Virus record (IMG/VR): IMGVR_UViG_2917870735_000001
Coordinates: 1 to 38,265 of that record
Direction: 5' to 3' (one strand)
Length of the DNA stretch: 38,265 nt
DNA from: a virus
Lineage: Duplodnaviria > Heunggongvirae > Uroviricota > Caudoviricetes
Each line of letters starts with the position of its first letter. The first letter of the stretch is position 1. The notes under the pieces were generated by a model, which did not search any database, was not told where the DNA came from, and saw only the letters and a list, made by a program, of their open reading frames with translations. Below, piece after piece: positions 982 to 36,870 of this stretch. The translations under genes were made by a program, and so were the position numbers.

Positions 982-3044
982 TAGATTGACTCCCCCATCT
1001 GAGCATCAGTCAATGCCTTGTGCCATATTCTGAAATTCCTGATATGACCAAATAAATGACGTAATCCGGCTGTAGTCTGGCCTCCAATACGGATAACTGC
1101 GGTGCTCTGAATACAGGACCATGTGGTTTTTGTTTCGCTGGATATACGCCCGTTACTTACTGCGCATGTAGACTGATCAGACTTTACACGCATCCCCATA
1201 ACCATTTTTTCAAGTGATGCATTTTCGTTTATCCGTCTGTTAGACCCACCAATATCGCAATAAGGAAATCCGTCGTAATCTGCTGAAGAACCGAAGCCAA
1301 GAATAATAGCCGCTCCGGTTTGATGACCGCCGGTATCAAAAACACGCGGTGCTGCATTTGGCGTTTTATACCAGTTCTTATGTACCTCACAAAGAACCGT
1401 AAAAGGAAGATTATAAAGATTATTCTTAATTGGGACTGTAACTATATCGCTTGCCCGTGTTACCGGTGCAGCCCCCGTAACAATAAAAGATGATGCGCCT
1501 GTACCAGCCTCAATCTGGGGAGTGGTTACATCGAGACAATCCCCTGATGCCACCATCTGACCTGTATCCGGAGAATACTGGACGAAACCACCAACCGTAT
1601 TTTCTGTTGTATCTGCTTTTAATGTAGCCTCAAAAAATATCCAGCCAGTTGCATCATCCTTAACAGACCTTGCTGTAACACGGCTTGTCTGGCCTGTCTT
1701 GCCAATTATGCGGGTGGTAAGGTTCAGGCTTGCTGCTCCTATTGATGTCCTTACATCCCCATCATAATGTTCAAATAAAATACGAACGGCGATATTATCA
1801 ACTTCACTTTTTACCCGACAGGATATAGTTACATACTTTTCGTCACCTGAAGTATCAACCCCTCCGGTACTTGAATACAGCCCTATAATGGTATGCGCTT
1901 TACTTGTGCCAACAATCGAATCCTGTACGACAAACCGGCCATAATTAAAACCGAAACTATCTGTGCCTGTTTCTGTAACGTCCAGTGAAGTTGACTTATT
2001 CCACTTCGAAGGGTCTGTACTGTTCGGGAAGAAGTTCGTTCTTTGCCCCTCAATAAGCAGGCCATCACGTTCAAATCGTGGCTCGTCAATGGCAGCCTCT
2101 GTCAGCACACCAGATTTATTAATGTAAGTTGCTTTTGATGCGCGTTTAAACTTTACAATCTTGTCGCCAGGCATTGTTATTTCATCGTCGCCAATAACAA
2201 TCTTTTTATATGACGGCGAAAAGCCCGTAATCATATCCAGTGAATCATTAAACGGAATCCAGACATCAGGCAGCGGCGGAACTATATTCACATATGGTTT
2301 TACAGCCACTTCCGCTGCAGCTTCTGCGCGGTCTGCCGCCGCTTCAGAACGTGTCGCCGCCGCGACGGCTTCATCCTTTTTCTGCCCGGCCTTTGTTGCC
2401 TCTGCTGCGGCCTCCTGCGCTTTTGTGGTGGCAGTTTCAGCCGCTGTTGTCGCTGATAATGCTTCACGACGTGCTGCGTCAGCATTTTCTGCAGATTTCT
2501 CCTCTGACGCCCGGGCATTAGTCTCTGAAAGTGATGCTGCTGTTGCTGCTTTTTCTGATGCTGTTTTAGAAGATGCAGCAGCTTTCTCGCTGTTGGCTGA
2601 ATTCGTCTCTGACGTTTTCGCCGCGTTCTTCGATGAAGCCGCTGCAGTTTCGGATTTCTTTGCCGCCGCTGCGCTCTGAGAGGCGGCTTCGGCGTTGCGT
2701 GCCGCTTCTTCCACCATTTCCTCAAAACGACGCAATGCCTCCGGCATGACATCATCTTCCGTCATGGCACCGAGAAAATCATTCAGCGTACCTGGTCTGG
2801 AACCTTCATAGACGGTAATGGTCCCGGCATGTGAAGGCGGAAAACCTTCAACCAGCAGGATAACGCTGTACTGGCCATACTCAACATCCATGCTGTAACG
2901 CCCGGCTTCATCCGGATTTTCAGAGGCCACCGTGTTCACCAGTACCGTGGTGCTGTTACGCTTTGCCTTCAGTTGAATAGTGCAGTTCTGTATTGGTTTT
3001 CCCGCACCATCTTTCAGCACACCTGAGATTTTTACTGCTGCCAT
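981..3044 (-). CDS. stf: side tail fibre protein (lambda Stf-like N-terminus, Ala/Ser-rich central repeats)
   Basis: N-terminus MAAVKISGVLKDGAGKPIQNCTIQLKA.. matches remembered lambda Stf N-terminus; ATG at 3044 (a GTG lies 6 nt upstream at 3050); long low-complexity A/S/T/E-rich collagen-like middle; position downstream of lom as in lambda. Confidence 0.85.
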   Translation of the reverse strand: MAAVKISGVLKDGAGKPIQNCTIQLKAKRNSTTVLVNTVASENPDEAGRYSMDVEYGQYSVILLVEGFPPSHAGTITVYEGSRPGTLNDFLGAMTEDDVMPEALRRFEEMVEEAARNAEAASQSAAAAKKSETAAASSKNAAKTSETNSANSEKAAASSKTASEKAATAASLSETNARASEEKSAENADAARREALSATTAAETATTKAQEAAAEATKAGQKKDEAVAAATRSEAAADRAEAAAEVAVKPYVNIVPPLPDVWIPFNDSLDMITGFSPSYKKIVIGDDEITMPGDKIVKFKRASKATYINKSGVLTEAAIDEPRFERDGLLIEGQRTNFFPNSTDPSKWNKSTSLDVTETGTDSFGFNYGRFVVQDSIVGTSKAHTIIGLYSSTGGVDTSGDEKYVTISCRVKSEVDNIAVRILFEHYDGDVRTSIGAASLNLTTRIIGKTGQTSRVTARSVKDDATGWIFFEATLKADTTENTVGGFVQYSPDTGQMVASGDCLDVTTPQIEAGTGASSFIVTGAAPVTRASDIVTVPIKNNLYNLPFTVLCEVHKNWYKTPNAAPRVFDTGGHQTGAAIILGFGSSADYDGFPYCDIGGSNRRINENASLEKMVMGMRVKSDQSTCAVSNGRISSETKTTWSCIQSTAVIRIGGQTTAGLRHLFGHIRNFRIWHKALTDAQMGESI

Positions 3045-3055
3045 ATCCACTCCAC

Positions 3056-3082
3056 AAAAAGGCCCGCCTGAACCGGCGGGCT
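3056..3082 (-). terminator. rho-independent terminator downstream of lom
   Basis: GC stem (cccgcc / ggcggg, about 7 bp) with a run of A on the plus strand at 3056..3060, i.e. T-run after the stem on the minus strand; 27 nt after the lom stop. Confidence 0.55.
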
Positions 3083-3108
3083 GTCATAACACTGTGTTAC
3101 CTGGCTAA

Positions 3109-3708
3109 TCAGAATTTATAACCGACACCCACGATGAAACCGTCAGTGCGCCAGTCGTCACTGCCGGAACCTTCATATGCAAGGTCAATGGCCACGGATT
3201 CGGTCGGGTTAAACTGCACACCCGCCCCCCACGCCAGAGACGTGTTGCTGTGGCGGTTGTCATCGCTTCCGGTCAGCACATCATGCATTTTCCCCTTGTT
3301 GTCGGTCACCTGAAGATAATCCCCGGAAAAAGTCGAAACACGGCTGTAAGCCACACCCGCCATCGCATAAGCACTGAACCATTCATTCACGCGTACAGAC
3401 GGCCCCGCCATCACGCTGAACCAGCGGTTACGCACTGAATCTTCATGCCAGCGGGTATCGCTGTAACGGGTAATCTGGCGATTCTTGTCTCCTGCATAGC
3501 TGAATGACGTCACCAGCCCCAGCGTGTCCGTAAATTCATAACGGTATTTCACGTTAATGCCCTTCAGGTCATCGTTGCCGGGCATATCAGTATGGGACTG
3601 AAGATACCCGCCGCTTAGTGTGGACTGATGCTCTGCTGCACTCGCTGGCGTACCAGCGGCGACCAGCCAGACTACTGCAGACAGAATAACAGCACATAAT
3701 TTACGCAT
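3109..3708 (-). CDS. lom: Lom/Ail-family outer membrane beta-barrel protein
   Basis: 199 aa with signal peptide ([24 protein letters not shown]) and C-terminal ..[25 protein letters not shown] identical in pattern to remembered lambda Lom; located between J and stf as in lambda. Confidence 0.9.
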
Positions 3709-23622: not shown

Positions 23623-24095
23623 ACCTCAATCTCTCTGACCGTTCCGCCCGCTTCTTTGAATTTTGCAATCAGGCTGTCAGTCTTATGCTCGAACTGACCA
23701 TAACCAGCGCCAGGCAATGAGGCCCAGATATTGCTGCAACGGTCGATTGCCTGACGGATGTCACCGCGATCAATCATTAGTAAAGCGCCACGCTCCTTAA
23801 TCTGCTGCAATGCAACAGCATCCTGGCTTTTAGGAGAGAAGTCTGTCAGCCCTAACTGCTTGCGGTAAGCATCCCACCAGCGTGAAAGAAGTTGATAACG
23901 GCCTGCGGCTGTTGATTTGAGTTTCGGGTTTAGCGTGACAAGTTTTCGAGGGTGATCGGAGTAATCAGTGAAGAGTTCGCCACCGACAATAACGTCATAA
24001 CCGTGGTTACGTGTCGGTTGTCGCCCGTTATCCGTTCCTTCTGACCAGGCCACCATATCAAGGAAAGCTTTACGCTGAGGATTTAGTACCTGCAT
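23619..24095 (-). CDS. R: endolysin (lambda R-type lytic transglycosylase)
   Basis: 158 aa; ..[146 protein letters not shown] matches remembered lambda R nearly throughout. Confidence 0.9.
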
Positions 24096-24098
24096 AAA

Positions 24099-24425
24099 TT
24101 ACTCCTTCGAGCTACCAAATTTGTTACCGATTACTCGCATTGCAGCCCCACGAATAGCATCGACACCGATCAGCCCAACGCCGCCACCAATGGCAACAGA
24201 AAGAGATTTAGGCCATCCGACATACTCAAGAGCGGATGCAAAAGTCAGCGTCAGAGCACCACAGAGCAAAATCTCGAGCGTTTTTCGCTTCCAGCCACCA
24301 CCACCGCCAAAATAGGCAATGCGCAATCCAGCCATAACAATCGACATAATCACTGCGCCCAGTGGTGTGTCTCCACGCCACCAGCTCTGGAGCAAGTCCA
24401 GCCAGGTATTTGGGTTATGAGGCAT
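24099..24425 (-). CDS. holin (not lambda S-type)
   Basis: 108 aa with at least two hydrophobic TM segments and charged C-terminus; immediately upstream of the endolysin with 3-nt spacing. Confidence 0.7.
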   Translation of the reverse strand: MPHNPNTWLDLLQSWWRGDTPLGAVIMSIVMAGLRIAYFGGGGGWKRKTLEILLCGALTLTFASALEYVGWPKSLSVAIGGGVGLIGVDAIRGAAMRVIGNKFGSSKE

Positions 24426-24577
24426 TTGTAGTTATCTCTCACCTCGCTGATACAGCAGGTGCAAATTGAGGGAACATCATGTACCGCAAATCAGAAGCGG
24501 AAACGTCAAAGAAGCCGAACCAATGGATAACTGCGGAATAGGCCAGGCCCAACGAATCCCCAGCCACAGAAACGACA

Positions 24578-24599
24578 AAACCCGCTCGACGGCGGGTTT
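24578..24599 (-). terminator. hairpin with partial U-tract upstream of the holin (candidate tR'-like terminator of a short late leader)
   Basis: 8-bp stem aaacccgc / gcgggttt; on the minus strand followed by TGTCGTTTCTG. U-tract is weak. Confidence 0.3.
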
Positions 24600-24722
24600 A
24601 AGCTGTGTGGCGAAGTAACCACTCTTAACAGATTACAAGAATTTTTGCGGACCGCGTTAATGATTTTTAATCCCAAAGTCGTATTATTCGTTTTTTACTG
24701 TAGGAGTTAACAGGTTTATATT

Positions 24723-26054
24723 ATGTTAGATACACTATCTTTCACTGAACGTGACGAGTTCCAACGAAGAAACATCGCTGAAAATATCATCAAGTTGCTA
24801 AAACCAGAGGCAGACATTTCACCACTGGTAATAGACGGCGCATGGGGAACAGGGAAAACAGAATTTAGTATCAAACTGAAAAATCTCATTATTGAGCAAG
24901 AAACCGAATCTAAAGTTGTTTATATTGATGCCTTTAAAGGGGATCATGCAGAATCTCCATTACTTCTCATAACCTCTGCAATTGCTAGCATTTTGCCTGA
25001 GGAAGAAAAACAACACTTCATTAAGAGATCACTTCCTGCAATTCGATTTGGTTTAAAAACGGTACTAAAAGCTGGTGCAGGTTGGTTTTTACGACAGGAG
25101 GCTAGTGAAGTTGCCGAAGAATTCCAAGATGCGATGAAGAAAGCAAGCAATGCAGCAATAGATGGGACTATTGAAAATTTGCTTGAAGACCATATGGAAT
25201 CAGAGAAAAACATAAATTCACTTAAATCTTGCATCGAAAGTATTTCAGAAAATCAAAAGATAGTAATTATAATTGATGAATTAGACCGATGTAAGCCGAG
25301 TTTTTCAACAAATGTCATTGAAACAATAAAACACATTTTTGACATCAATAATGTCTTTTTTATTTTAGTTACAAACACAGAACAATTAAAAGCATCGATA
25401 AATCATATTTATGGTTATAGTATTAACTCACAAAAGTATCTTGACAAGTTTATAAAATATACCATCACGCTTCCAGACACATGTTTAATAAATGGTCACG
25501 TCGTATGTAAAACATCTGCTATATATTGGAATTACCTTGTAGACAAGACAAAATCACTAAATGAAATTAATAGTTTATCTGGTAGATTTATCCGTGATTT
25601 AATTCAACGAACCAACTTATCCTTACGTGAAACACAAACTTTTTCACGCAATCTTAACATTTTTCAACTGTTAAACGACGAGGAGTACAAAAGCAGTGCT
25701 CCTTTAATAAATAGGATCTTTGTCGTAGCTGTCTTCATACATTGCTTTGGTGACAAGGAAAAAATAAAACAAGAAATTACCGCTGAATCTATATCTCATT
25801 TAGCAGACCTGCTTAACATAAAAGAAATACCTTATTCTTATGAGAGAAGATCGCAAATTCCTGAAATATCTATTGTATTCTTCGGAATAATTAAAGACAG
25901 CATTACTCTTAATGCGCGATTTGCCCCTAAAAGTGATGAAGAACTTAAAAGATTCACAAATGTTTATACTAATTATGATCACCTAAATTTTTGGAGTACT
26001 ACACCCAGAGAGTTATTGATAAAATATATCAATCAAATGTCATTCATTCAGTAA
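24723..26054 (+). CDS. KAP-family P-loop NTPase
   Basis: 443 aa; Walker A GAWGTGKT (about residues 39-46) and the KAP-characteristic Walker B ..IVIIIDELDRC..; markedly AT-rich relative to flanking phage genes; opposite strand to the late operon; strong terminator immediately downstream. Confidence 0.8.
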   Translation: MLDTLSFTERDEFQRRNIAENIIKLLKPEADISPLVIDGAWGTGKTEFSIKLKNLIIEQETESKVVYIDAFKGDHAESPLLLITSAIASILPEEEKQHFIKRSLPAIRFGLKTVLKAGAGWFLRQEASEVAEEFQDAMKKASNAAIDGTIENLLEDHMESEKNINSLKSCIESISENQKIVIIIDELDRCKPSFSTNVIETIKHIFDINNVFFILVTNTEQLKASINHIYGYSINSQKYLDKFIKYTITLPDTCLINGHVVCKTSAIYWNYLVDKTKSLNEINSLSGRFIRDLIQRTNLSLRETQTFSRNLNIFQLLNDEEYKSSAPLINRIFVVAVFIHCFGDKEKIKQEITAESISHLADLLNIKEIPYSYERRSQIPEISIVFFGIIKDSITLNARFAPKSDEELKRFTNVYTNYDHLNFWSTTPRELLIKYINQMSFIQ

Positions 26055-26056
26055 AT

Positions 26057-26088
26057 AATACGCCCCTGCATGGGGCGTATTTTATTAA
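26057..26088 (+). terminator. rho-independent terminator after the KAP NTPase gene
   Basis: Perfect 10-bp stem aatacgcccc / ggggcgtatt with a 5-nt loop (26057..26081), followed by TTATT; overlaps the 3' end of Q on the other strand. Confidence 0.7.
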
Positions 26089-26450
26089 ACGTCCAAATCT
26101 AATGTTAGATCTAGCATGGAAAGGCAGCCATCAATAAATCCTTCGGCTAGCTGTATTTCTATACGTATCAATTTCTCATCCTTTCCACGCGCCTTTGCAA
26201 TCTTACGCTTGGATATTCTGTATAAATAATGTGCCACAAGAAGCGAATGCTCATAAGGTCTTTTTTGCTTTAGACGAGCAAGACAACCTTCAATAATTAA
26301 TGCATCACTATCCGAACAAGCCAAGCGTTTCTTGCTGGTATAGGGAAGAAGCCCTTTAAACCCAGCAGCTATAGGAGAATAGTCTACTCCTGAACTATCA
26401 CTCGCCGCCCATGCTCCCCAACGATCCAGAACCATCTGAATATCACGCAT
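26085..26450 (-). CDS. late-gene antiterminator Q-like protein
   Basis: About 121 aa from ATG 26450 (ORF track GTG at 26465); sequence MRDIQMVLDRWGAWAA.. resembles the Q-antiterminator family of phage-82-type prophages as I recall it; conserved position upstream of the lysis genes. Confidence 0.65.
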   Translation of the reverse strand: MRDIQMVLDRWGAWAASDSSGVDYSPIAAGFKGLLPYTSKKRLACSDSDALIIEGCLARLKQKRPYEHSLLVAHYLYRISKRKIAKARGKDEKLIRIEIQLAEGFIDGCLSMLDLTLDLDV

Positions 26451-26467
26451 CAACTTTCTCCACAAAA

Positions 26468-27463
26468 TCAGGCCAGCACGCCAGTTGCCAGCGCACGATC
26501 GATAAAACGAAATATCAGCTCCAGTTGGGAGCCATACTTCTCTTCAAATGCCACGGTATCTGCATGCAGCTCGTCGTGATGCTTTCTGCACAAAGGCAAC
26601 ACAAAGAGGTCATGCGCTTTTGTCCCCATTCCTCCCTGACCGTGACCTATCAGGTGGTGAGGATCATCAGCAGACTTTCCACAACATGCACACGGCTGCG
26701 TCTTAACCCAGCGCGTGTACTTTTCGTTAACCCAGCGGCAACGTTTGGGGCGTAACATAAAAGACTCCGGCGACTCCGGATCCACTTTCAGCGCCAGCAC
26801 CTTTTTCGCTTTATCCTGGATGATGCTGGTGGCAGGAACCGAAGGAACAAGGTCACTTTCCCGGGTGACAGACGGCACAACAGGCTTCGGTAATCTCAGT
26901 GCCTTACGGGCTGCACTTTCCGGTAAGGCATCCGCCAGGTCATTACGAACCAGCCACCAGCATAGTTCCGGCATTGTCACAACGTGACTATCATCAAAAC
27001 CGAGATCCCGACGCACAACAGACAACATCCAGCGGGCACAGTTATCCGTTGCCATTGATTCCAGCCGTTCCGTGAACTGATCGTGCAGCTGGTTATCGCA
27101 GTGCCAGCACAGACGGATTGCGCCCGGCGCGTGTCGCATTGTGGTCATGTTCTCGCTGTGCCAGTCGGAATGAGGCCACTGGCAGCCTTTTTCACGAAGT
27201 AACCAGCTTTCAAGACATTCCACTCCACCAGCACGACGGATCACTGCCTCATTGCGGAACACGGCCCGAACGGCAGGATCATCCGCCAGCGGTTGTGATG
27301 CTGCCGGAACGGCACCACTGGCGAAAGATGAATAACGTTCCGGCTCAGGCTCCAGCAGGACACGCCCCTGCATAAACAGGGGCATCAGCTCTGAACCTGG
27401 TCTGAACAATACGATCCCCATACGCGGGGCAATTTCAGGGGTCAGTAGAGCTCTCACGGTCAC
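26468..27463 (-). CDS. DUF968-like protein (Cys/His-rich C-terminus)
   Basis: 331 aa; C-terminal ..QPCACCGKSADDPHHL..HDLFVLPLCRKHHDELH.. Zn-binding/HNH-like pattern typical of nin-region proteins in E. coli cryptic prophages (recalled); start could be GTG 27463 or ATG 27421. Confidence 0.5.
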   Translation of the reverse strand: MTVRALLTPEIAPRMGIVLFRPGSELMPLFMQGRVLLEPEPERYSSFASGAVPAASQPLADDPAVRAVFRNEAVIRRAGGVECLESWLLREKGCQWPHSDWHSENMTTMRHAPGAIRLCWHCDNQLHDQFTERLESMATDNCARWMLSVVRRDLGFDDSHVVTMPELCWWLVRNDLADALPESAARKALRLPKPVVPSVTRESDLVPSVPATSIIQDKAKKVLALKVDPESPESFMLRPKRCRWVNEKYTRWVKTQPCACCGKSADDPHHLIGHGQGGMGTKAHDLFVLPLCRKHHDELHADTVAFEEKYGSQLELIFRFIDRALATGVLA

Positions 27464-27464
27464 C

Positions 27465-28274
27465 TCAATGAACGGTATCGAGCAGCTTTAACAGCTCAGG
27501 GAATCGGGATTCGAAGAAATGCGGCTGCGTCTCGCGCGGATTTGCGGGACTGGTGATGTTCTTGCCGAACATGCAGCCTTTCGCTGTCAGCGACCAGAAT
27601 TTTTTGATGTTGTTAATCGCGGTACGGCTGTATCGTTCGCGTTGTTCAACGATCCCCAGCTTCACCATCTGGTGATATGCCTGATTAGCCGTCAGGCGGA
27701 TACCATACTGCTTCAGCAGTGCACTCAGCGACAGCGTGGGGCGACTTGAGCCATCGTGTGCATCAGCAGGAGCATCAATGGCATAGCGCGGTGCCAGATT
27801 CGGTAATCCAACAGCCTCCTGGAGTTTCTGACAGGCCCCAAGCACAGATGAGTTAGACAGGTTTAACTCCCGACGCATAAAGTCCAGCAGAATCACTCCA
27901 GCCTGCATCTTGTCAGCAGCCTGTCCGGATAATTTTTCCGGTGCGCTGGTTACCATGTCGAAAGTACGGATCACCTTCAGATGGAATGACGGGCTGATCC
28001 ACATTGCATAGGCATACACCAGTTCCTTACAGACATACGTTCCCCGTTCATTTCCCCCATGAATCACACTCACCGGGTCAACACCCAAATTCTGGGTGTT
28101 GGTCAATTCATGAACAAGCTCAACAGTTTGTTGGCTGGAAAGAAACTTTCCTGGCTCCTTGGTTCTTGCATTTGCACCAGATGCTACTGCTGCGCGATGC
28201 AGATCGTTCAGGCTGTAACGACCATAAGCATCACGACGAACTTCAATACCATCAATGACCATCAGATTATTCAT
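27465..28274 (-). CDS. KilA-N domain protein (antirepressor-like)
   Basis: 269 aa; ATG at 28274 with AGGAGAA RBS; N-terminal region with the KilA-N-like pattern (..IDGIEVRRDAYGRYSLNDLHRAA.. ..YAMWISPSFHLKVIRTF..). Confidence 0.55.
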   Translation of the reverse strand: MNNLMVIDGIEVRRDAYGRYSLNDLHRAAVASGANARTKEPGKFLSSQQTVELVHELTNTQNLGVDPVSVIHGGNERGTYVCKELVYAYAMWISPSFHLKVIRTFDMVTSAPEKLSGQAADKMQAGVILLDFMRRELNLSNSSVLGACQKLQEAVGLPNLAPRYAIDAPADAHDGSSRPTLSLSALLKQYGIRLTANQAYHQMVKLGIVEQRERYSRTAINNIKKFWSLTAKGCMFGKNITSPANPRETQPHFFESRFPELLKLLDTVH

Positions 28275-28293
28275 ACTTCGTTTCTCCTCTTAA

Positions 28294-28683
28294 TCAGGCG
28301 GCTGCACCCGCCGTTTTCTCGTACTTACTTATAGTGATCTCGACCTTCCCTTCCGGGATAACCGGTCCCCACTCCACCAGCATTCTTTTCACCTGGCTGT
28401 CGTCTTCCCACACACCCGCGTGGGTCAGGGCGTCAAACAGCGCCTTGTTATAGTTATCCAGATCGCGGATCCGGTTATCCGGTGGAAACAACACGATCTC
28501 CACTGAAGCAGGTGCCGACGTTGGTTTCGGCAGACGACGTAACTGCTCAATGATGGCGGCACACGCCGCGCCCTGGAATTTGCGCCCCGCCGCGCTTATC
28601 AGGCTCTTACCTGCAAACGCCCCTTTGTTGGGGTGTCGCCAGTACGTGTTCACGCTGGGCGGAAAAGGCAGAATCAGCTTCAT
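28294..28683 (-). CDS. rusA: RusA-family Holliday junction resolvase
   Basis: 129 aa; ..RDLDNYNKALFDALTHAGVWEDDSQV.. matches the remembered RusA catalytic core (DLDN..K..DAL...W.DD.QV); ATG overlaps upstream stop (ATGA). Confidence 0.8.
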   Translation of the reverse strand: MKLILPFPPSVNTYWRHPNKGAFAGKSLISAAGRKFQGAACAAIIEQLRRLPKPTSAPASVEIVLFPPDNRIRDLDNYNKALFDALTHAGVWEDDSQVKRMLVEWGPVIPEGKVEITISKYEKTAGAAA

Positions 28684-29006
28684 ACTTTCAGGCCCCTCTC
28701 ATGTAACCAGTAGGCTGCACGCAGCCTAGCGTTTTCCTCACCGGCAAGCAGTGCGCGGATAATCCCGACCGCCTCGCTGTCGTCGTCCTTCACCGCGGTA
28801 TGAAGCGTGATCCCCCGGGCCACGCCACGCTTTATCGTGATGACGCCTTTTTTCTCCAGTGCGCGAAGATGCTCCACCGCTGCATTCACTGAACGGTATC
28901 CCAGCATGGTTGCCACCTCCTGATTGGTTGGCGGGAAGCCACGTTCTTTCTGATAAGAAATCAGCATATCCAGCACCTGCTGCTGGCATTGAGTTAACGT
29001 CGTCAT
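28680..29006 (-). CDS. LexA N-terminal DNA-binding-domain-only protein
   Basis: From ATG 29006: MTTLTQCQQQVLDMLISYQKERGFPPTNQEVATMLGYRSVNAAVEHLRALEKKGVITIKRGVARGITL.. closely parallels the remembered E. coli LexA N-terminal winged-helix domain ([66 protein letters not shown]); no S24 peptidase domain follows. ATG overlaps the upstream TAA (TAATG). Confidence 0.6.
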   Translation of the reverse strand: MTTLTQCQQQVLDMLISYQKERGFPPTNQEVATMLGYRSVNAAVEHLRALEKKGVITIKRGVARGITLHTAVKDDDSEAVGIIRALLAGEENARLRAAYWLHERGLKV

Positions 29007-29494
29007 TAAGCCCCCACGTAATTCCCTGACAGATACCACTCTTCACCCGATGCAGCGCGCTTGCTGCTTTTCCGTAAACACCGCTCACGACGCGCAAGAA
29101 AATTGTTTCGCTCTTGCTGGGAGTGGCTTTCACGGAATGCCGCCATCCACACCGTTGCAGCACGACGAAATAAGCCCCTGGACTCCAGTTCTTCAGCCTG
29201 GCGGGTCAGGCACAAAATCACCCGCGGGTCGTTAGTGCCGACATAGAAATTGCGCACAGGTCTGGATTCACGAACTGGTTGCGGTTCCGGCTCCTGCGGT
29301 ATCTCAGTCAGGCGAGGGAAATGTCTGCGTGTATCCCCTTCACAACGGTGAGCCACACGCCCACTCTGACGTAACTTGCTTGCTGACTGCAGAACGCGCT
29401 GTCGTGAGTAACCTGCAAAAGCATCCGCAATGTCTCCGGAAGTACACCCCGGATGGGCTTCAATGAATTTCTGAACGTCATTCAAAAGACTCAT
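29006..29494 (-). CDS. hypothetical protein of replication module
   Basis: About 162 aa from ATG 29494 (2 nt after the initiator stop); basic, Arg-rich C-terminus; no recognised motif. Too short to be a helicase loader. Confidence 0.45.
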   Translation of the reverse strand: MSLLNDVQKFIEAHPGCTSGDIADAFAGYSRQRVLQSASKLRQSGRVAHRCEGDTRRHFPRLTEIPQEPEPQPVRESRPVRNFYVGTNDPRVILCLTRQAEELESRGLFRRAATVWMAAFRESHSQQERNNFLARRERCLRKSSKRAASGEEWYLSGNYVGA

Positions 29495-29496
29495 GA

Positions 29497-30438
29497 TCAC
29501 CCCCTGAATCCTGCCGGGATCTGGCTGTAGTCCACGTTGTCGTAACTGGCTTTAAAGTACGGGTCTTCGCGTTTTTCTGTGTACGTGCTGACGGACGGTG
29601 ATAAGCGCAGGGAAAGTTCATCCCATTTTTCCCGCAATTTCGATGGGCTGAGGACGTTACGGCACCAGAACGGGTCACGACTGACGCGGCTGTACATCTC
29701 GCAGATTTGTTTGTGAGTGCGACCATCCTGAACACACATCAGGCGAATTTCGTTTGCCCAGGCTGTCCAGTTTGGTTCTTTGGGACGAACCACCTCGCCG
29801 TCACATTCGGCGGCCTGCTCGTACAGGGCGATGATTTTTTTCCAGAGCCACTGTGCACAGGTCAAATCATCCTGCGTTCCCCACTGGCGCTTTTTAGGGC
29901 TGAATACAACCGCATCAGGATGGCGAGTTAAAAAATCCTGTTCAGCCTTCTGCGTGTCCGGTTGCGAAGCGTCCGGACGAGAAGTTTTTTTATCTGACGG
30001 ATCATGTTTTGATTTTACTGACGGATCCCCGCCAGATTCTGACGGGTGAAAACCCGCTTTTTTGCCAGATTTCGACGCATCAAATTTTGACGGGTCAGAT
30101 TTTGATGCGTCAGATTTTGACGGGTCAGAATCTGACAGTTGAGAAAGTGCCGCAGCCTGAAGCTTTGCAACGTTAAGCTGATAGACGTTCGACGCATTGC
30201 GGTTACCCTGGCGACGCGCCTTACGCGTTAACCAGCCTTCTGCTTCCAGCCGTGCGATAGCCGTTCTTACAGTACTCACCCCTGCGCCAATCTGGCGGGC
30301 AATGGTTTCAATTGATGGCCAGCACACACCTTCGTCATTACTGAAATCAGCCAGGCGGGCCATAATTGCCACACTGGATAATTTCATGCCTGACGCTGCG
30401 CAACCATCCCATACATAGCCGGTTAATTTAGTGCTCAT
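29497..30438 (-). CDS. replication initiator (O-like) with N-terminal winged-helix DNA-binding domain and internal origin iterons
   Basis: 313 aa; N-terminal HTH (..WPSIETIARQIGAGVSTVRTAIARLEAEGWL..); central low-complexity linker DPSKSDASKSDPSKFDASKSG encoded by tandem DNA iterons, as in the lambda O architecture. Confidence 0.65.
   Translation of the reverse strand: MSTKLTGYVWDGCAASGMKLSSVAIMARLADFSNDEGVCWPSIETIARQIGAGVSTVRTAIARLEAEGWLTRKARRQGNRNASNVYQLNVAKLQAAALSQLSDSDPSKSDASKSDPSKFDASKSGKKAGFHPSESGGDPSVKSKHDPSDKKTSRPDASQPDTQKAEQDFLTRHPDAVVFSPKKRQWGTQDDLTCAQWLWKKIIALYEQAAECDGEVVRPKEPNWTAWANEIRLMCVQDGRTHKQICEMYSRVSRDPFWCRNVLSPSKLREKWDELSLRLSPSVSTYTEKREDPYFKASYDNVDYSQIPAGFRG
29990..30140. 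repeat. replication origin iterons (tandem roughly 15-bp repeats, consensus about ATTTTGACGGGTCAG) inside the initiator gene
   Basis: Plus-strand copies at about 30067..30082, 30083..30098, 30099..30113, 30114..30128, 30129..30138, with further degenerate copies at 29993..30050; adjacent T-rich stretch at 29985..29992. Confidence 0.6.
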
Positions 30439-30447
30439 GACCGACCT

Positions 30448-30786
30448 CTATTTCCCTGAATTTACGACGAAACTGTTCGAGCGGACTGAAGCATTCATGC
30501 TCATAGCCTTCGCGGAGGTAGATAACCCGTTGTGTTTCCGGCTCCCAACGAATGACTCTGACGGGTACTCCGTAGTGATCTTTGAACCAGCGGTTAACTT
30601 GTCGCAAAGGACTGTCTCCTTCTGCCGGTTGAAATCACCCACAGCCCACTCTGCAAAGCTGTGGGTTACAATTTCCCTGTCACCTGGTACATTCACTGCA
30701 TAGCAATACTCCACCTTCGCTTTTCCACCCGGTACAGGAAGCGCAATCAGTTGCGAGCGACGGTAGGGTGTTGTTAAACTGTTCAT
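30448..30786 (-). CDS. hypothetical protein
   Basis: 112 aa; ATG at 30786 overlaps the upstream stop (ATGA) indicating coupling within the early-right operon; no recognised motif. Confidence 0.45.
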
Positions 30787-31340
30787 GCGTTAGTTTCTCC
30801 ACAATTAGAAGCAATCGACGCCACGACGCCCGGAGCTGCACACTCGCGGGCGTCATTACTTTCTGAAATGCAAAAGATTTTGTAGACCAGTGCTGCATGC
30901 TCCTGCAGCTTCGAAATTGACAGGTACAGTTCGTCGTTAATTGCTGCCTGCTCGTGTGGTTCCACCACCCCATCTTCAATTGCTGAACGAATCTGTTTTG
31001 AATAACTGCCGATCTGTTCAATGACCTCCAGCAGGCGTTGATTGATATCGGCGTTCTCTACTTCCTCAATTTCAGGAAGCGATACAAACACCCCACCAGC
31101 AGACTGTGCGACTGCATCCGCAATGTGGTGAGTGCCAGCAGCACGCTGTAAAACCATTGCCCATCCCAGCGGGAAAATCTGATCGCCATCGGCACGAAGG
31201 CGGTTGAATAAAGCGTTCTCTGTTACATCCAGCCAGTCAGCAGCTTCAGCGTACCCCCCCGGCAACGCCGCGATAGTTTTTCTGACAGCTTTCACGTACC
31301 ACTCAGGCTGTTTTTCTACTTTCCAGTGATGCTTACCCAC
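30783..31340 (-). CDS. early regulatory protein in CII position (possibly YdaT-like)
   Basis: 185 aa; GTG start at 31340 with AGGAGG RBS, overlapping cro-like 3' end; assignment rests on synteny (cro, then this gene, then replication genes), not on sequence recognition. Confidence 0.4.
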
Positions 31341-31593
31341 GGCTTACCTCCTGTTCCTGTGGTTTAAACTCATTCCGGTTTTGACTAGATTGAAAACGAG
31401 CAGGGTAGAGAATCTGCATTTCGCTGATTTCGCCCTTAAAAAAATTGGCCAGACGTTCTGCAAGATCGATAGATGGAATTTGTTCCAGTCTCTCAATACG
31501 ACTCAGCGTCGCTGGATTGACCTGAACGCCCGCAGCAACATGCTGCAAAGTGAATCCATGCGCCTTACGCACATTTCGTAATGGTGATTGCAT
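31333..31593 (-). CDS. Cro-like HTH (XRE-family) repressor
   Basis: 86 aa; HTH ..HGFTLQHVAAGVQVNPATLSRIERLEQIPS..; ATG at 31593 with GGAGG RBS; divergent from cI across an operator-containing intergenic region. Confidence 0.7.
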   Translation of the reverse strand: MQSPLRNVRKAHGFTLQHVAAGVQVNPATLSRIERLEQIPSIDLAERLANFFKGEISEMQILYPARFQSSQNRNEFKPQEQEVSRG

Positions 31594-31690: not shown

Positions 31691-32383
31691 ATGAACATAG
31701 GAAACCGAGTCAGACAACTTCGCCAGGCGAAGAACATGAAAATCGCCGATCTTGCTGAAGCAATAGGAGTGGATGCGGCGAACATCTCACGTTTGGAAAC
31801 AGGCAAGCAGAAACAATTTACCGAACAAGCACTGAGCAATATTGCCAAGAGCTTAGGTGTTGATATTGCTGATCTCTTTACCATAGACATCAAAAGTAAT
31901 ACTGTATATAAAAACAGTATTAATGAGGATGTTACGCAGGTGAAGGATGTGTTCCGTATTGAAATGCTGGATGTCAGTGCCAGTGCGGGAAATGGCCTTA
32001 TCCAGGGCGGTGATGTCATTGATGTGATTCATGCCATCGAATACAGAACTGATAATGCTGTATCGATGTTTGGCGGACGACCAGCCAATCACATTAAAGT
32101 TATCAACGTTCGTGGAGACAGTATGTGTCCAACCATAGAGCCAGGAGATCTAATCTTCGTTGATGTCAGTATCAATCAGTTTGATGGAGATGGTATCTAT
32201 GTATTTGGTTTTGATGATAAAATTTACGTCAAACGACTGCAAATGATACCTGACAAATTGCTGGTGATTTCTGATAACCAGATTTACCGCGAATGGGGAA
32301 TTACCAGCGAAAATGAACACCGATTCATGGTCTTTGGAAAGGTCTTAATCAGCCAGTCACAAACCCTTAAGCGACACAATTAA
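31691..32383 (+). CDS. cI: CI-type repressor (HTH_XRE plus S24 LexA-like autopeptidase domain)
   Basis: 230 aa; N-terminal HTH (..MKIADLAEAIGVDAANISRLETGKQ..), C-terminal S24 domain with Ser motif (..VRGDSMCPTIEPGDLIFVD..) and Lys (..YVKRL..); divergent from cro-like gene. Confidence 0.9.
   Translation: MNIGNRVRQLRQAKNMKIADLAEAIGVDAANISRLETGKQKQFTEQALSNIAKSLGVDIADLFTIDIKSNTVYKNSINEDVTQVKDVFRIEMLDVSASAGNGLIQGGDVIDVIHAIEYRTDNAVSMFGGRPANHIKVINVRGDSMCPTIEPGDLIFVDVSINQFDGDGIYVFGFDDKIYVKRLQMIPDKLLVISDNQIYREWGITSENEHRFMVFGKVLISQSQTLKRHN
31900..31919. promoter_or_regulatory. SOS-box-like palindrome TACTGTATATAAAAACAGTA inside the cI coding sequence
   Basis: Matches the LexA box consensus TACTG(TA)5CAGTA at 18 of 20 positions, with both CTGT/ACAG arms and TA flanks intact; lies in the linker-coding part of cI. 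Confidence 0.4.
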
Positions 32384-32402
32384 CCCCACATCCCCATCAT
32401 TT

Positions 32403-32427
32403 AGCCACTAGAAGGTGGCTTTTCATT
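32403..32427 (+). terminator. terminator-like hairpin downstream of cI
   Basis: Stem agccac / gtggct (6 bp) with 6-nt loop followed by TTTTCATT; 20 nt after cI stop. Confidence 0.5.
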
Positions 32428-32436
32428 GCCCACAAC

Positions 32437-32490
32437 ATTGCACATTACGCAATAAAATACTTGCACAGCACGCAATTTAATTTTATCTTT
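32437..32490 (+). promoter_or_regulatory. second operator cluster (OL-like) with candidate rightward early promoter
   Basis: Same half-sites as OR: ATTGC..GCAAT (32437..32453) and TTGCA..CGCAA (32461..32475); candidate -35 TTGCAC (32461..32466) and AT-rich -10 around 32481..32490. Confidence 0.35.
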
Positions 32491-32941
32491 CTTTCCAGAC
32501 CAACAAACAAGGTCCTAACAAAATTTGGTTGTAACACGGCGTATGGCACATGCGTCATTAGCGGTCTGGAGACGTTAAAGGGGACAATCCACTCCTTGCT
32601 CGGGCAAACAAACCAGGTAGCCGGAATGTGCAAGTCAATGATGATGCTGACAAGACGCCTAACCAGCGTGGCGATTCGGTTTGACGCCTGGGAAGAGACC
32701 AGGGTGCAACGATAAGAGCATTTATGGAGCCGCAACAAAGTGTGGTGCCGTAACGGGCTAAGTGCTCTCAGCGTTGTGGTAATCCGCGAAATGGCGCGGC
32801 GGTAAGTATGGCGGGGTTACTCTTTCCCCGTTGAGGACACCGGGTTGTCAGGCTGACCATACGCCTGAGTGACAACCCCGCCACAACAGCCACTGCCTTG
32901 GCGGTATCAGTTTGTACCATTGCTTCCGGCTGGTACCGCTC

Positions 32942-33040
32942 TTTTTACAAAACAGAGAAGAGCATCACCGGACGACGGGCTCATAACCCAATCCATCCGG
33001 GCGGCTACTACCGCAGGTGTTCTTCTCTGTTTTGTGGAGA
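32942..33040. repeat. long inverted repeat: perfect 15-bp arms ACAAAACAGAGAAGA / TCTTCTCTGTTTTGT separated by 59 bp
   Basis: Arms at 32947..32961 and 33021..33035, extendable with G-U/A-U pairs to about 20 bp (32942..33040); lies in an ORF-poor leader upstream of the early-left genes. Confidence 0.5.
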
Positions 33041-33160
33041 AACTAACCGCCCCTGCGGGGGCATCTATTGAAACGTAATTGACTCAATAATCGCCGGATG
33101 GCGAGGGCTTCCTTTTCCCAAAATTCAGCGCGGTGCAGCGCATATAAAGTGGAGAACGAA

Positions 33161-33697
33161 ATGTCATTTATTAAAACTTTTTCCGGGAAGCATTTTTATT
33201 ATGACAAGATAAATAAAGACGACATCGTTATTAACGATATCGCGGTTTCCCTTTCAAATATCTGTCGCTTTGCTGGTCATCTTTCACACTTCTACAGCGT
33301 TGCCCAACATGCGGTGCTTTGCAGCCAGCTGGTACCGGAGGAGTTTGCTTTTGAAGCGTTAATGCATGATGCAACAGAAGCGTATTGCCAGGACGTCCCC
33401 GCACCACTGAAACGCCTTCTTCCTGACTATAAACGGATGGAAGAAAAAATAGACACCGTAATCCGTGAGAAATACGGGTTACCCCCGGTTATGAGTACGC
33501 CCGTGAAATATGCCGATCTCATCATGCTGGCAACCGAACGCCGCGATCTCGGGCTTGATGATGGCTCTTTCTGGCCTGTACTGGAAGGCATCTCGGCAAC
33601 AGAGATGTTCAAAGTGATTTCACTGGCACCGGGCCATGCCTACGGGATGTTTATGGAACGCTTCAACGAGTTATCGGAGTTACGCAAATGCGCATAA
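33161..33697 (+). CDS. HD-domain phosphohydrolase (YfbR-like 5'-deoxynucleotidase family)
   Basis: ATG at 33161 with GGAGA RBS; H..HD signature (..HAVLCSQLV..ALMHDATEAYCQDVPAPLKRLL..) parallels the remembered E. coli YfbR pattern (..YHDASEVLTGDLPTPVK..). Confidence 0.65.
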   Translation: MSFIKTFSGKHFYYDKINKDDIVINDIAVSLSNICRFAGHLSHFYSVAQHAVLCSQLVPEEFAFEALMHDATEAYCQDVPAPLKRLLPDYKRMEEKIDTVIREKYGLPPVMSTPVKYADLIMLATERRDLGLDDGSFWPVLEGISATEMFKVISLAPGHAYGMFMERFNELSELRKCA

Positions 33698-35089: not shown

Positions 35090-35322
35090 TACGTAGTAGT
35101 TCAGATGTGAGCTAACACATCTATGGCACAGAGCTAAACCTAATCAGACTGTCTACTCTGTGCCTAAAGTGGATGTTGCAAATACCACCAGCGAAGAACC
35201 AAAATTAATGGTGCAGGATGATGCAGATAATTCTGATGAAAACACCCAGAATTTGTTACAATAAGTACATAGCATTAAAGTTTGTTATGAATGTCTAAAT
35301 GTAGCTTAATTCAGAGGTGATA

Positions 35323-36870
35323 ATGGGTGCCAATGGTTTACTAGCAGTCTTCGCCATACTTATTGCTTGGTATACTCTCTTAACGGATGAGAGACGTGTT
35401 GATTTAAGGTTACGCATATCTAAAATTAATATTATATTCATTATCTTTTTTATATCAACAATCTTAACAATTATATATTCTAAGGTATTGCTAAGTATTT
35501 TTCCGATAAAACCGATCCCTTGGATACTCGGTTTTAACGAAGATACATTGGCTTTTACTTGTCTTTGTATCATAATTACATTTTTTGGAATTAAAGTACT
35601 GGGCAAAAGACTACCAAAAGCAAACCTTACCTGTTGGATCAGCGTTTCAGAAATGTATCTGCGCGCAAAAAAAATAGAACAACTGGGATATCTTTTTGAT
35701 AAATATCACGAACAGCTATTTAATATAATTAGTAATAAAAAATGGTATGTTCGCGTACATAATTACTTAGTCCCTTCATTATCTTCCATTATAATGGATA
35801 AAGAGAAGGCAAAAAAAATACGATTCAAAAAAGCTAGAAAATTTCTGTCAAAGTTTTTCCCTTATGAAGACAAAAGACAAAATGCTATTCAATTAAATAT
35901 ATCCAATCTTCTGAAATCAAAGGTTTTTTCACATTATTTAATTGATACTTACCCTCACGTAGCTATGAAGGCCACCTGCTTACAGCTTAGATATAATTAT
36001 GAGTATAATACAAATTTCTTTACGTATTTAATATCTAACCCAAACAGCATTATGTATAGGGAGTTACGAGACAACCAAAATCGTTCATATACAGGGGAGT
36101 ATGCACTCGACGAAAGTAATGCCTTGCTTAATTTTTATTTAAATGATATTCGTATGGCGATAAATTTAGAAATATGGAAACCTGTGGGTGATTATGTCAT
36201 TAGCTACATAAAAAAACAAAAAGGGAGTTCTTGCTTTTACAATCATCCAGATAATTACTATTCAAGTAGTGATGAGCGTTGGGAATGCCCAATCTTCGTT
36301 GGATTGACGTTTTTCGATGTTATGGTATCTACAGCAATATTCAAACGCTCAAAAAACAATATGTGGCTCATGTATTATCGTTTTTTCCTAAAGGAAATTC
36401 TTGAGAGCTATGAAAAATCTAGCAGCATAGATATAAATAGAGAGTTCCCCATGCGATTTGATTATTTAATATATGAGCTAATCAGCCGTTGTAATATATG
36501 GGTAGGTGCAACAGAACACCTCAATTATGATAACTGGACAACAGAAGAGAAAGAGCAATCCCCAGAGTTCTTTGCCTCTACAACCTTGGGGGAAATGATG
36601 TATCTGATTATTACTTCAGAAAAAATGCATAACAATCAAAAGACATATCTTTTAGAAATCATTATTCAAAGAATGAACTCTCTTGATCAAAACAAGAAAC
36701 CTGCTTACTCCAAGGAAATCTTCAACAATCTTATCCGAGCATTCTCCCCTACTTCCATTGATATAAATGCAGTAAATAAATTACGGCAACTTTATAAAGG
36801 TGTTGATCATGTTCTAAAAAACAAAAATTCAACTTTTGAAGTTGAACTATCAAAATATCTTGACCAATAA
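35323..36870 (+). CDS. AT-rich membrane-anchored protein of unknown function (3 predicted N-terminal TM helices plus about 400-aa soluble domain)
   Basis: ATG at 35323 with AGAGGTGA RBS (ORF track GTG at 35317); GC content far below the prophage average; hydrophobic segments about residues 5-22, 36-58, 70-92; no recognisable catalytic motif; located between xis-like gene and integrase, convergent with int. Confidence 0.7.
   Translation: MGANGLLAVFAILIAWYTLLTDERRVDLRLRISKINIIFIIFFISTILTIIYSKVLLSIFPIKPIPWILGFNEDTLAFTCLCIIITFFGIKVLGKRLPKANLTCWISVSEMYLRAKKIEQLGYLFDKYHEQLFNIISNKKWYVRVHNYLVPSLSSIIMDKEKAKKIRFKKARKFLSKFFPYEDKRQNAIQLNISNLLKSKVFSHYLIDTYPHVAMKATCLQLRYNYEYNTNFFTYLISNPNSIMYRELRDNQNRSYTGEYALDESNALLNFYLNDIRMAINLEIWKPVGDYVISYIKKQKGSSCFYNHPDNYYSSSDERWECPIFVGLTFFDVMVSTAIFKRSKNNMWLMYYRFFLKEILESYEKSSSIDINREFPMRFDYLIYELISRCNIWVGATEHLNYDNWTTEEKEQSPEFFASTTLGEMMYLIITSEKMHNNQKTYLLEIIIQRMNSLDQNKKPAYSKEIFNNLIRAFSPTSIDINAVNKLRQLYKGVDHVLKNKNSTFEVELSKYLDQ

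Follow-up and report, generated by a model that had tools for sequence, protein, structure and literature searches.

Structured non-coding RNA modules and a variant DicF locus in the early-left leader of a lambdoid prophage

What occupies the roughly 730 nucleotides (nt) between the cI repressor gene and the first early-left gene of a lambdoid prophage, where no credible gene is found? The present study analyzes this stretch, 32430-33160, in a window of 38,265 nt (IMG/VR record IMGVR_UViG_2917870735_000001, positions 1 to 38,265), which is recognized as a lambdoid prophage from its gene content (Pfam matches and translations of open reading frames, ORFs). A preliminary description, made from the letters alone, had taken the stretch for a hairpin-rich leader with no convincing gene before 33161 and had suggested a structured RNA there, possibly an antitermination element of the put type found in phage HK022, or a small regulatory RNA. 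The stretch is non-coding and structured, its functional strand is the plus strand (the sense of the early-left promoter, PL), and it is a mosaic of conserved non-coding RNA modules, here called B, C, D1 and D2, each of which occurs separately elsewhere. The region is probably a set of phage early-leader RNAs of the kind processed by host ribonucleases (RNases), made up of a variant DicF locus and two folds, B and C, that have no Rfam family. Its parts, in order, are as follows.

32536-32776, plus strand: module B, a conserved multi-helix structured RNA of about 240 nt, from covariation and a covariance model
32773-32887, plus strand: element C, a 115-nt pseudoknotted RNA, from homology to prophage Qin and covariation
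32888-32946, plus strand: D1, a DicF-type unit with a 12-nt single-stranded 5' segment (32888-32899), a hairpin of 13 base pairs (bp; 32900-32940) and a U-run (32942-32946)
32942-33040, plus strand: D2, a 25-bp near-perfect stem capped by a conserved two-hairpin junction, its 5' arm including the D1 U-run
33049-33062, plus strand: a small GC hairpin with a CCCC-UGCG-GGGG core, from the fold
33063-33160, plus strand: a 5' untranslated module travelling with the HD-domain gene, with the ribosome-binding site (RBS) GGAG about 10 nt before the ATG at 33161

Coding status, strand and mosaic make-up

That the stretch encodes small proteins, as public annotations have it, appears extremely unlikely. 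ORFs of 57 to 97 codons do occur on both strands (84, 69 and 57 codons on the plus strand, 97 on the minus strand, with a further 50-codon ORF there), and coding sequences (CDSs) are annotated here in several GenBank or RefSeq records, but the ORFs overlap one another, lack an RBS and have no Pfam match, and the annotated CDSs disagree on strand and frame between records. Across the conserved core of 42 diverged homologues every reading frame is open in at most 10, with stops in all frames in most; indels between leader homologues are of 3 and 4 nt, so not multiples of three throughout, and substitutions preserve base pairs. A conserved coding gene in homologues, which the preliminary description had held would speak against a structured RNA, was looked for, and the frames proved not to be conserved. 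Helix covariation, the non-triplet indels with no conserved frame, and ORFs without a Pfam match together establish the non-coding, structured status of the stretch.

Public records nevertheless assign hypothetical proteins to the DNA of modules B, C, D1 and D2, on differing strands and in differing frames: e14 ymfH, mEp460_036/037, cdtI orf40, SfII_35, mEp390_036 and Tyrion gp54. In view of helix covariation and of the stops in homologous copies, these annotated CDSs, K-12 ymfH included, are probably spurious and represent RNA instead, and several of the proteins are probably due for re-annotation.

The hairpin-rich character of the leader was borne out by folding. The 686-nt leader has a minimum free energy of -258 kcal/mol, compared with -222 +/- 6 for dinucleotide shuffles (z-score -5.6 on the plus strand and -4.5 on the minus strand), and many G.U pairs fit the plus strand only, which identifies it as the functional strand. 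Of the further computational checks proposed earlier, covariance analysis gave pairs changed on both sides in excess of shuffles in module B and in element C, and the Rfam/Infernal scan found no family over the leader: Rfam 15 gave 0 hits in the whole window at gathering score, and at E up to 10 only chance-level hits in 32300-33300 and 32770-32960. ARAGORN found no tRNA or tmRNA in the window, and the Rfam tRNA model likewise had no match there.

The mosaic is evident from BLAST. With 32384-33160 (777 nt) as the query, 134 phage records matched, and some part of the leader was present in 4758 of 5426 complete E. coli genomes, mostly piecewise; at least 80% of the whole leader was present in 441 genomes only. 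Local BLAST against fetched loci separated five segments with carrier sets of their own, namely 32517-32779, 32780-32890, 32891-32946, 32947-33062 and 33063-33160. The last of these illustrates the pattern, being found in mEp460 1.3 kb further downstream, directly 5' of the homologous HD gene.

Element C, the DicF-type unit D1 and the stem D2

Element C was folded from 23 non-redundant copies, and the following parts (all plus strand) were resolved.

32773-32779/32881-32887: stem P1, the closing stem, 7 bp
32784-32788/32795-32799: stem P2
32800-32803/32839-32842 and 32813-32816/32826-32829: stem P3 and its variable hairpin
32843-32853/32863-32877: stem P4
32806-32811 with 32857-32862: pseudoknot GUAUGG x CCAUAC, 6 bp, joining the P3 internal loop to the P4 loop

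In this fold 95.4% of cells are paired, and 8 pairs are changed on both sides compared with 2.5 +/- 1.3 in shuffles and 0-3 in slid controls. P3 consists of CGGU/ACCG plus a hairpin that varies in sequence with its pairs kept (CGGGG/CCCCG, CUGGG/CCCAG, CCAGGU/ACCUGG). The pseudoknot is 100% paired, with one position occurring as U-A, U.G or C-G: phage P1 has GCAUGG/CCAUGC, two other copies have a G.U intermediate, and elsewhere the GUAUGG strands are invariant. The weakest stem is P1, where variation is mainly by wobble and the rows from phages P1 and P7 are poorly aligned. The 8-bp inverted repeat GGTTGTCA (32843-32850) / TGACAACC (32870-32877) with its nested CAGGC/GCCTG pair, reported in the preliminary description, is present at these positions. 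No Rfam family matches element C, and an incomplete literature search found no prior description of the fold, which was known only as part of a precursor. Two other leads were discarded: a likeness by eye to 5S rRNA loop E, of which the 3' strand is not conserved and for which the Rfam 5S model gave no hit, and a pattern search of genome contigs with the GC-rich GGCGCGGCGGNAAGNATGGC, of which the matches were mostly random high-GC genomes.

Element C was the commonest leader piece in the sampled E. coli BLAST rows, with 32773-32891 matching at 90-92% identity in K-12-type and most other listed E. coli genomes. The K-12 copy lies in prophage Qin between ydfC and dicB (3001-3118 of the fetched Qin locus), and dicF itself (3133-3184 of that locus, 76.7 bits with the Rfam model) follows directly 3'. 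Further copies are found in phages P1 and P7 about 45 nt 3' of the C1-controlled Pban promoter, overlapping the 'dicF-like region' annotated in P1, and in Salmonella phage F1055, in pPE4 (recorded as an Actinobacillus phage) and in 120 IMG/VR contigs.

DicF, a regulator of cell division whose pairing partners are the ftsZ, xylR and pykA mRNAs, is among the oldest known bacterial small RNAs (sRNAs), and its long form, with the dicBF operon of Qin, was reportedly the subject of a study by Faubladier in 1990. Two DicF species, both accumulating in stationary phase, have been described, one of 53 nt with an RNase E-dependent 5' end and one of 190 nt with an RNase III-dependent 5' end (Ragunathan 2023, PMC10448788). 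Counting 190 nt back from the Qin DicF terminator places the 5' end 1-6 nt before GUUGUGG, so that element C is the 5' domain of the 190-nt long DicF, with a fold common to both that covaries, and element C together with D1 is homologous to that Qin species. The suggestion of a small regulatory RNA within a structured leader thus gains support from this homology as well as from helix covariation. The likeness extends to the surroundings: element C shares about 91% identity with what lies just 5' of dicF, both loci occupy the same early-left place behind a repressor of the cI/DicA type, a GGCGGUA...UACCGCC terminator hairpin follows, and an upstream helix of RNase III type uses the same GUUGUGG. 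Unlike the Qin locus, the window has the DicF 5' seed UUUCUGGUGACGUUU replaced and a different hairpin loop, and Qin has ydfABC rather than an intact module B. The 115-nt domain on long DicF is more strongly conserved than DicF itself, which, with its pseudoknotted fold, suggests that the long form has a function of its own.

D1 ends in a hairpin of -18.6 kcal/mol followed by CUUUUU, an intrinsic terminator. It has in common with DicF the sequence GGCGGUAUCAGUUU and the stem base GGCGGUA/UACCGCY. Its placement also agrees with that of DicF, as aligning it with Qin, P1 and pPE4 shows: it lies in the early-left operon 3' of the 115-nt domain, and an intrinsic terminator closes it. The frame GGCGGU...ACCGCC-UUUUU recurs around differing interiors in the D1-type units of Qin, pPE4, TL-2011b, e14 and SfII. 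We treat D1, on this sequence likeness, as a DicF-type sRNA/terminator variant outside the Rfam DicF family. A comparable pattern is seen in the prophage anti-sRNAs AsxR and AgvB and related EcOnc sRNAs, which have a conserved 3' end (hairpin/terminator) and variable 5' ends or seeds (Tree 2014, PMC4104026); unlike D1, which is in the PL leader behind a 115-nt domain, these are primary transcripts of 51-60 nt lying 3' of PR' in the late region.

An alternative explanation for element C, module B or both could be a riboswitch or attenuator that senses a ligand and so tunes the frequency of termination at D1. Both folds are pseudoknotted and aptamer-like with invariant unpaired nucleotides, an intrinsic terminator lies 15-60 nt 3' of element C in the window, Qin, P1 and pPE4, and pairing of CCGCC (32878-32882) with GGCGG (32900-32904) could act as an antiterminator, in competition both with the element C stems P1 and P4 and with the terminator's 5' arm in D1. 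This pairing had been listed in the preliminary description, and the letters are there but do not form a conserved helix: the counterpart of CCGCC is CCGCU in Qin and CCGCC in pPE4 and is lacking in F1055-type homologues. In addition the spacer between fold and terminator lacks conservation, and stable accumulation is described for the 190-nt RNA (PMC10448788). Nor is there the conserved platform or gene family by which a riboswitch is recognized, as the folds are conserved while what follows them varies, module B being succeeded in some contexts by a tRNA or an RBS and in others by element C or another insert, and the downstream genes being wholly different between contexts. We consider a riboswitch very unlikely.

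The 15-bp perfect inverted repeat noted earlier (32947-32961 / 33021-33035) proved to be the core of the 25-bp stem of D2. The segment 32940-33070, GC hairpin included, folds at -63.2 kcal/mol (z = -9.1). D2 is kept in e14, SfII, mEp460 and others, with compensatory stem changes such as A-U to C-G and G-C to C-G (locus L341), and in e14 the unit is annotated as the protein YmfH, just 5' of xisE/intE. From the length of its stem we infer that D2 is a candidate RNase III substrate. It resembles the RNase III hairpins of the lambda N leader, lambda sib and the T7 R sites in that both D2 and the terminal helix of module B are long, near-perfect and positioned between units of an early transcript; unlike those simple sites, D2 has a conserved branched top, and its cleavage is a prediction. 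The main text of a global RNase III study makes no mention of ymfH or e14. The small GC hairpin that follows was also confirmed (33049-33062), with a stem that covaries among homologues (CGACC/GGUCG, GGCGG/CCGCC, GCCCC/GGGGC).

A 16-nt exact repeat, UUGUGGAGAAACUAAC, occurs at 33032-33047 (plus) and 30789-30804 (minus), in the sense orientation of both early transcripts. The PL copy is the 3' foot of D2, and the PR copy takes in the final codons of the CII-like gene together with the RBS of the gene that follows. Its BLAST E value within the window is about 0.025, and chance, a recombination joint and a shared signal are all conceivable.

Module B and its contexts

The preliminary description had missed a large structured part of the leader, module B at 32536-32776, of which the parts (all plus strand) are these.

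32538-32545/32549-32556: helix Ha
32562-32569 with 32613-32616 and 32620-32623: helix Hb
32621-32634: the invariant sequence CCGGAAUGUGCAAG
32655-32658/32666-32669: helix Hd
32661-32664 with 32678-32681: pseudoknot AACC x GGUU, supported by covariation
32687-32691/32699-32703: helix He, with loop GAAGAGA
32707-32722 and 32760-32776: the two strands of the terminal helix, 14-18 bp, which closes the module

Homologues were collected by scanning for the invariant 14-mer CCGGAATGTGCAAG, which gave 120 IMG/VR contigs and, after reduction to less than 93% identity, 42 representatives. Their alignment has variable hairpins, non-triplet indels and many substitutions that preserve base pairs. In the core of six helices 95.9% of cells are paired, 13 pairs are changed on both sides (shuffles gave 6.9 +/- 1.1, slid controls no more than 6), double changes occur in 56 cells compared with 16.5 in the control, and the covariation score is 0.295 compared with 0.129. 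The pseudoknot pairs a loop yCACCA with GGUGUGAC, and the window and one other lineage have AACC/GGUU, a clean double change. There is possibly a second pseudoknot, GCACAU x AUGUGC, of which both strands are invariant and hence without covariation information. Three of the 14 pairs of the terminal helix are compensatory, among variants such as GAGAGCA/UGCUCUC, GAGCGCAC/GUGCGCUC and AGGUAAGAGCA/UGCUCUUUCC. A covariance model of the core, R1, gave a single hit in the window, at 32532-32719 on the plus strand only (149 bits), and nothing in HK022, Qin, e14 or SfII. In the mEp390 locus a weak second R1 hit (1688-1819, 11.5 bits, E 0.037) lies just 3' of the strong copy and may be a degenerate duplicate.

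The module is widespread, matching by BLAST in 97 phage records, in 1832 of 5426 complete E. coli genomes and at 546 places on plasmids, and in every listed row of the E. coli matches it was unannotated. No Rfam family was found for it in the window or in six other phages, and an incomplete literature search found no prior description. A complex RNA absent from Rfam is thus carried by roughly one in three complete E. coli genomes and by P1-type plasmids, and it may be a new class in its own right.

Three contexts recur. In lambdoid phages module B lies about 200-300 nt 3' of cI on the same strand, the carriers being mEp460, cdtI, Stx2a_1447 and mEp390 of E. coli, Klebsiella phages and one phage listed under Stenotrophomonas; an annotated N is lacking in all of them. 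In P1, P7 and D6 it lies between tRNA-Ile2 and ban. In the Uetakeviruses TL-2011b, phiV10, SPN9TCW and Tyrion it heads a small operon, its last nucleotides abutting tRNA-Arg(UCU) with no spacer, followed by a DicF-type hairpin and a second terminator, so that module B, tRNA and DicF-like hairpin, closed by two tandem terminators, look like a self-contained RNA operon. Among 104 unique contexts tRNA-Arg is fused at the 3' end in about 22 and tRNA-Ile2 at the 5' end in about 12, which implies release by tRNA-processing enzymes; about half of the copies have no tRNA neighbour. On this distribution we propose that module B is an autonomous, mobile RNA domain needing host factors only. As a separate observation, the module B or element C copies of BUCT708 (recorded as a Stenotrophomonas phage) and pPE4 (recorded as an Actinobacillus phage) are 74-86% identical to those of E. 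coli, and the immunity regions of these phages are Klebsiella- or E. coli-like; either the host labels are doubtful or the modules travel widely.

The tRNA fusions raise the possibility that the modules are RNA-processing devices that only define the ends of tRNAs or sRNAs, with module B a self-cleaving ribozyme or element C a tRNA-like substrate of RNase P. Double-pseudoknot folds are typical of small ribozymes, module B abuts tRNAs without a spacer, and element C occupies a slot that elsewhere holds a tRNA and has a 7-bp acceptor-like closing stem followed by an A-rich, CCA-like sequence. Against this, a tRNA-like gene is not recognized by ARAGORN, neither a ribozyme nor a tRNA family of Rfam is hit at E up to 10, about half of the module B copies have no tRNA beside them, and the P1 closing stem varies mainly by wobble. 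This explanation seems quite unlikely.

A more substantial alternative would make module B, perhaps together with element C, a processive, protein-independent antiterminator in the manner of HK022 put or the Bacillus EAR (eps-associated) element, replacing N: the nascent RNA would bind and modify RNA polymerase, so that neither D1 nor the GC hairpin nor Rho-dependent sites would stop it within the 660-nt untranslated leader. In HK022 one put copy lies 3' of PL and one 3' of PR, and they suppress terminators in cis by way of the beta' zinc-binding domain. We know of no settled account of how N-less phages of the SfV, mEp460, cdtI and Stx2a_1447 type read through early terminators, and module B is placed just where such phages would need an antitermination device, making it a concrete, mutable candidate. 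It follows directly on a repressor-controlled early promoter in the E. coli and Klebsiella lambdoid phages as well as the Stenotrophomonas-labelled one, and occurs also in the C1-controlled ban operon of P1; a strong terminator, D1, separates PL from all early-left genes, xis included; and the fold would need no phage protein partner, as the neighbouring genes vary. In a Pfam scan of its proteins the window itself has Q and, as had been noted from the letters, no recognized N. A sense terminator lies within 500 nt 3' of module B in 69 of 89 contexts, which is suggestive, but the noisy antisense control scored in 50 of the 89. The P1 copy is 2.6 kb from the promoter, past the leader terminator and directly before ban, the tRNA and two tandem terminators after the Uetakevirus copy resemble a true unit end, and SfII and e14 keep D1 and D2 5' of xis/int without module B.

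Comparison with put itself is consistent with analogy at most. Like putL and putR, the leader is structured RNA encoded in cis, stands first in the early-left transcript of an N-less lambdoid phage and needs no phage protein partner. Unlike put, which is about 70 nt with two stem-loops and is present in two copies, the window has folds of 115 and about 240 nt with 5-7 helices and pseudoknots, in one copy, and its modules also occur in non-leader, tRNA-linked contexts. BLAST of 32481-32950 against HK022 24000-31000 gave only chance matches of 10-25 nt (E 0.11 or worse), and the HK022 putL region, read directly, has no likeness to the leader modules. For a second, put-like copy, self-BLAST of the leader against the window yielded the 16-nt repeat only, and the R1 hit is single, with none in the PR operon. 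The earlier suggestion of a put-type element is therefore not upheld as homology and would hold at most as a functional analogy. The Bacillus EAR element, a structured RNA of more than 100 nt in a long operon, offers a precedent, though from a different phylum and without likeness detectable by Rfam. On balance we regard such an antiterminator in place of N as unlikely; if true, it would explain how a large lambdoid group does without N.

A broader possibility may be advanced tentatively, at well below an even chance: that module B is a new class of large pseudoknotted phage RNA (of N-less lambdoid phages, P1-like phages and Uetakeviruses) acting directly on a host machine, with RNA polymerase as the most interesting target, by protein-independent processive antitermination that has no relation to put, and that element C is likewise a functional long-DicF domain and not precursor scrap.

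The P4 CI RNA and the C4 RNA of P1 and P7 (RF01695) are also small structured RNAs cut by host RNases from an early or immunity leader, with tRNA-like features. Unlike C4, the modules have no complementary target repeats that could be seen in the window, and P1 has C4 elsewhere besides these modules; the C4 model scored 14 bits in the window, against a threshold of 45 bits and on the minus strand, which is the wrong one. In the rha antirepressor region of the mEp460 locus Rfam places C4 (83.6 bits) and isrK (67 bits), at 359-446 and 471-547, and the window has neither.

Module junctions, proposed processing and genomic setting

The 3' strand of the terminal helix of module B ends in GUUG(UG) (32773-32778), the same nucleotides that open P1 of element C, so that the two helices are mutually exclusive. 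Most of module B is lost in Qin, where a helix of about 22 bp, CCAUAAC..AAAGCGCAUGG / ACCGUGCGCUU..GUUGUGG, homologous to the terminal helix, is kept. On the 3' strand of this helix lies the 5' end that the 190-nt RNA acquires through RNase III. The slot bounded by GUUGUGG...CCACAAC can hold other contents. In TL-2011b a real tRNA-Arg takes the place of element C, and mEp460 and Tyrion have within the same stem a different insert of about 118 nt with no Rfam hit. This insert (mEp460 locus 2893-3026, Tyrion and several IMG/VR loci) starts with GUUGUGGUGAAU, contains a covarying hairpin GCGCAGGCUGAUGCGC / GCACAGGCUGAUGUGC and is probably another undescribed structured RNA. The arrangement thus behaves like a cassette of module B, then a tRNA or structured insert, then a DicF-type hairpin/terminator.

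These patterns are consistent with the leader being a polycistronic precursor of stable non-coding RNAs, the 5' part of a repressor-controlled PL transcript and not of put type, a reading to which we give about an even chance. On inactivation of cI, PL would fire near 32497, module B would fold, and its long terminal helix would take up GUUG(UG) at 32773-32778. Cleavage of that helix by RNase III, shown in Qin and expected here by analogy, would free GUUGUGG to close P1 of element C. Many polymerases would stop at the D1 terminator, leaving an RNA of about 170 nt made of element C and the DicF-like unit, which RNase E, again as shown in Qin, may trim to a short base-pairing sRNA with a 5' segment unlike that of DicF. 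Read-through RNA would carry D2, and RNase III probably cuts there, which would detach the RNA array from the message encoding the HD hydrolase, PAPS-reductase-like protein and Xis. The 190- and 53-nt species and their RNase dependence come from experiments on the Qin homologue; what was computed here is the non-coding status, strand, folds, homology and modularity, whereas the promoter, the RNase cleavages and any activity in trans in the window phage are inferred.

Several points weigh against a processed precursor. The Rfam DicF model (RF00039) scores only 11.7 bits (E 4.4) on D1, compared with a gathering score of 48, aligning model positions 13-52 to 32898-32941 on the plus strand. The exact cleavage site in Qin was placed from the 190-nt length rather than from primary mapping data, and cleavage by RNase III, and likewise by RNase E, in the window phage is extrapolated from Qin. 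No downstream terminator was found in 20 of the 89 module B contexts. Lastly, module B lies in the PL leaders of N-less phages 5' of a terminator that must be read through for xis, a position that a cis antiterminator fits equally well.

The setting of the leader is that of a lambdoid immunity region.

26088-26465, minus strand: Q antiterminator, further along the PR operon, with replication genes and RusA
30783-31340, minus strand: CII (CP76) gene, diverging from cI
31333-31593, minus strand: Cro-like helix-turn-helix (HTH) gene, diverging from cI
31691-32383, plus strand: cI repressor with S24 and HTH domains (Pfam)
32403-32420, plus strand: cI terminator hairpin AGCCAC-TAGA-AGGTGGCT followed by TTTTCATT, from a terminator scan
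32438-32489, plus strand: OL/PL, with operator-like sites TTGCACATTACGCAA (32438) and TTGCACAGCACGCAA (32461), from the pattern TTGC-N7-GCAA
33161 (start), plus strand: YfbR-like HD-domain hydrolase, the first real gene after the leader
33688, early-left side: PAPS-reductase-like gene
34811, early-left side: Xis-like HTH gene, followed by a P4-type integrase

The pattern TTGC-N7-GCAA has only four occurrences in the window, two of them in OL/PL and one between cI and cro. Putative PL hexamers were found by eye, -35 TTGCAC (32461-32466), which overlaps the second operator-like site, and -10 TATCTT (32484-32489), 17 nt apart; a consensus promoter scan did not pick them up. The early-left transcript would accordingly be assigned from the operators, starting near the position given above and running rightwards on the plus strand. 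In SfII the homologue of the cI terminator is annotated as a putative rho-independent terminator.

Two minor observations concern the neighbouring genes. Two proteins are encoded in the stretch of the PR operon that separates the replication genes from RusA (28683-29039 and 29009-29500): one has a LexA DNA-binding domain, the other a PerC-like activator domain. Between the Xis-like gene and the P4-type integrase, which is on the opposite strand, a 517-codon ORF (35317-36870) rich in I, K, N and Y and without a Pfam match looks like a moron or candidate defence gene.

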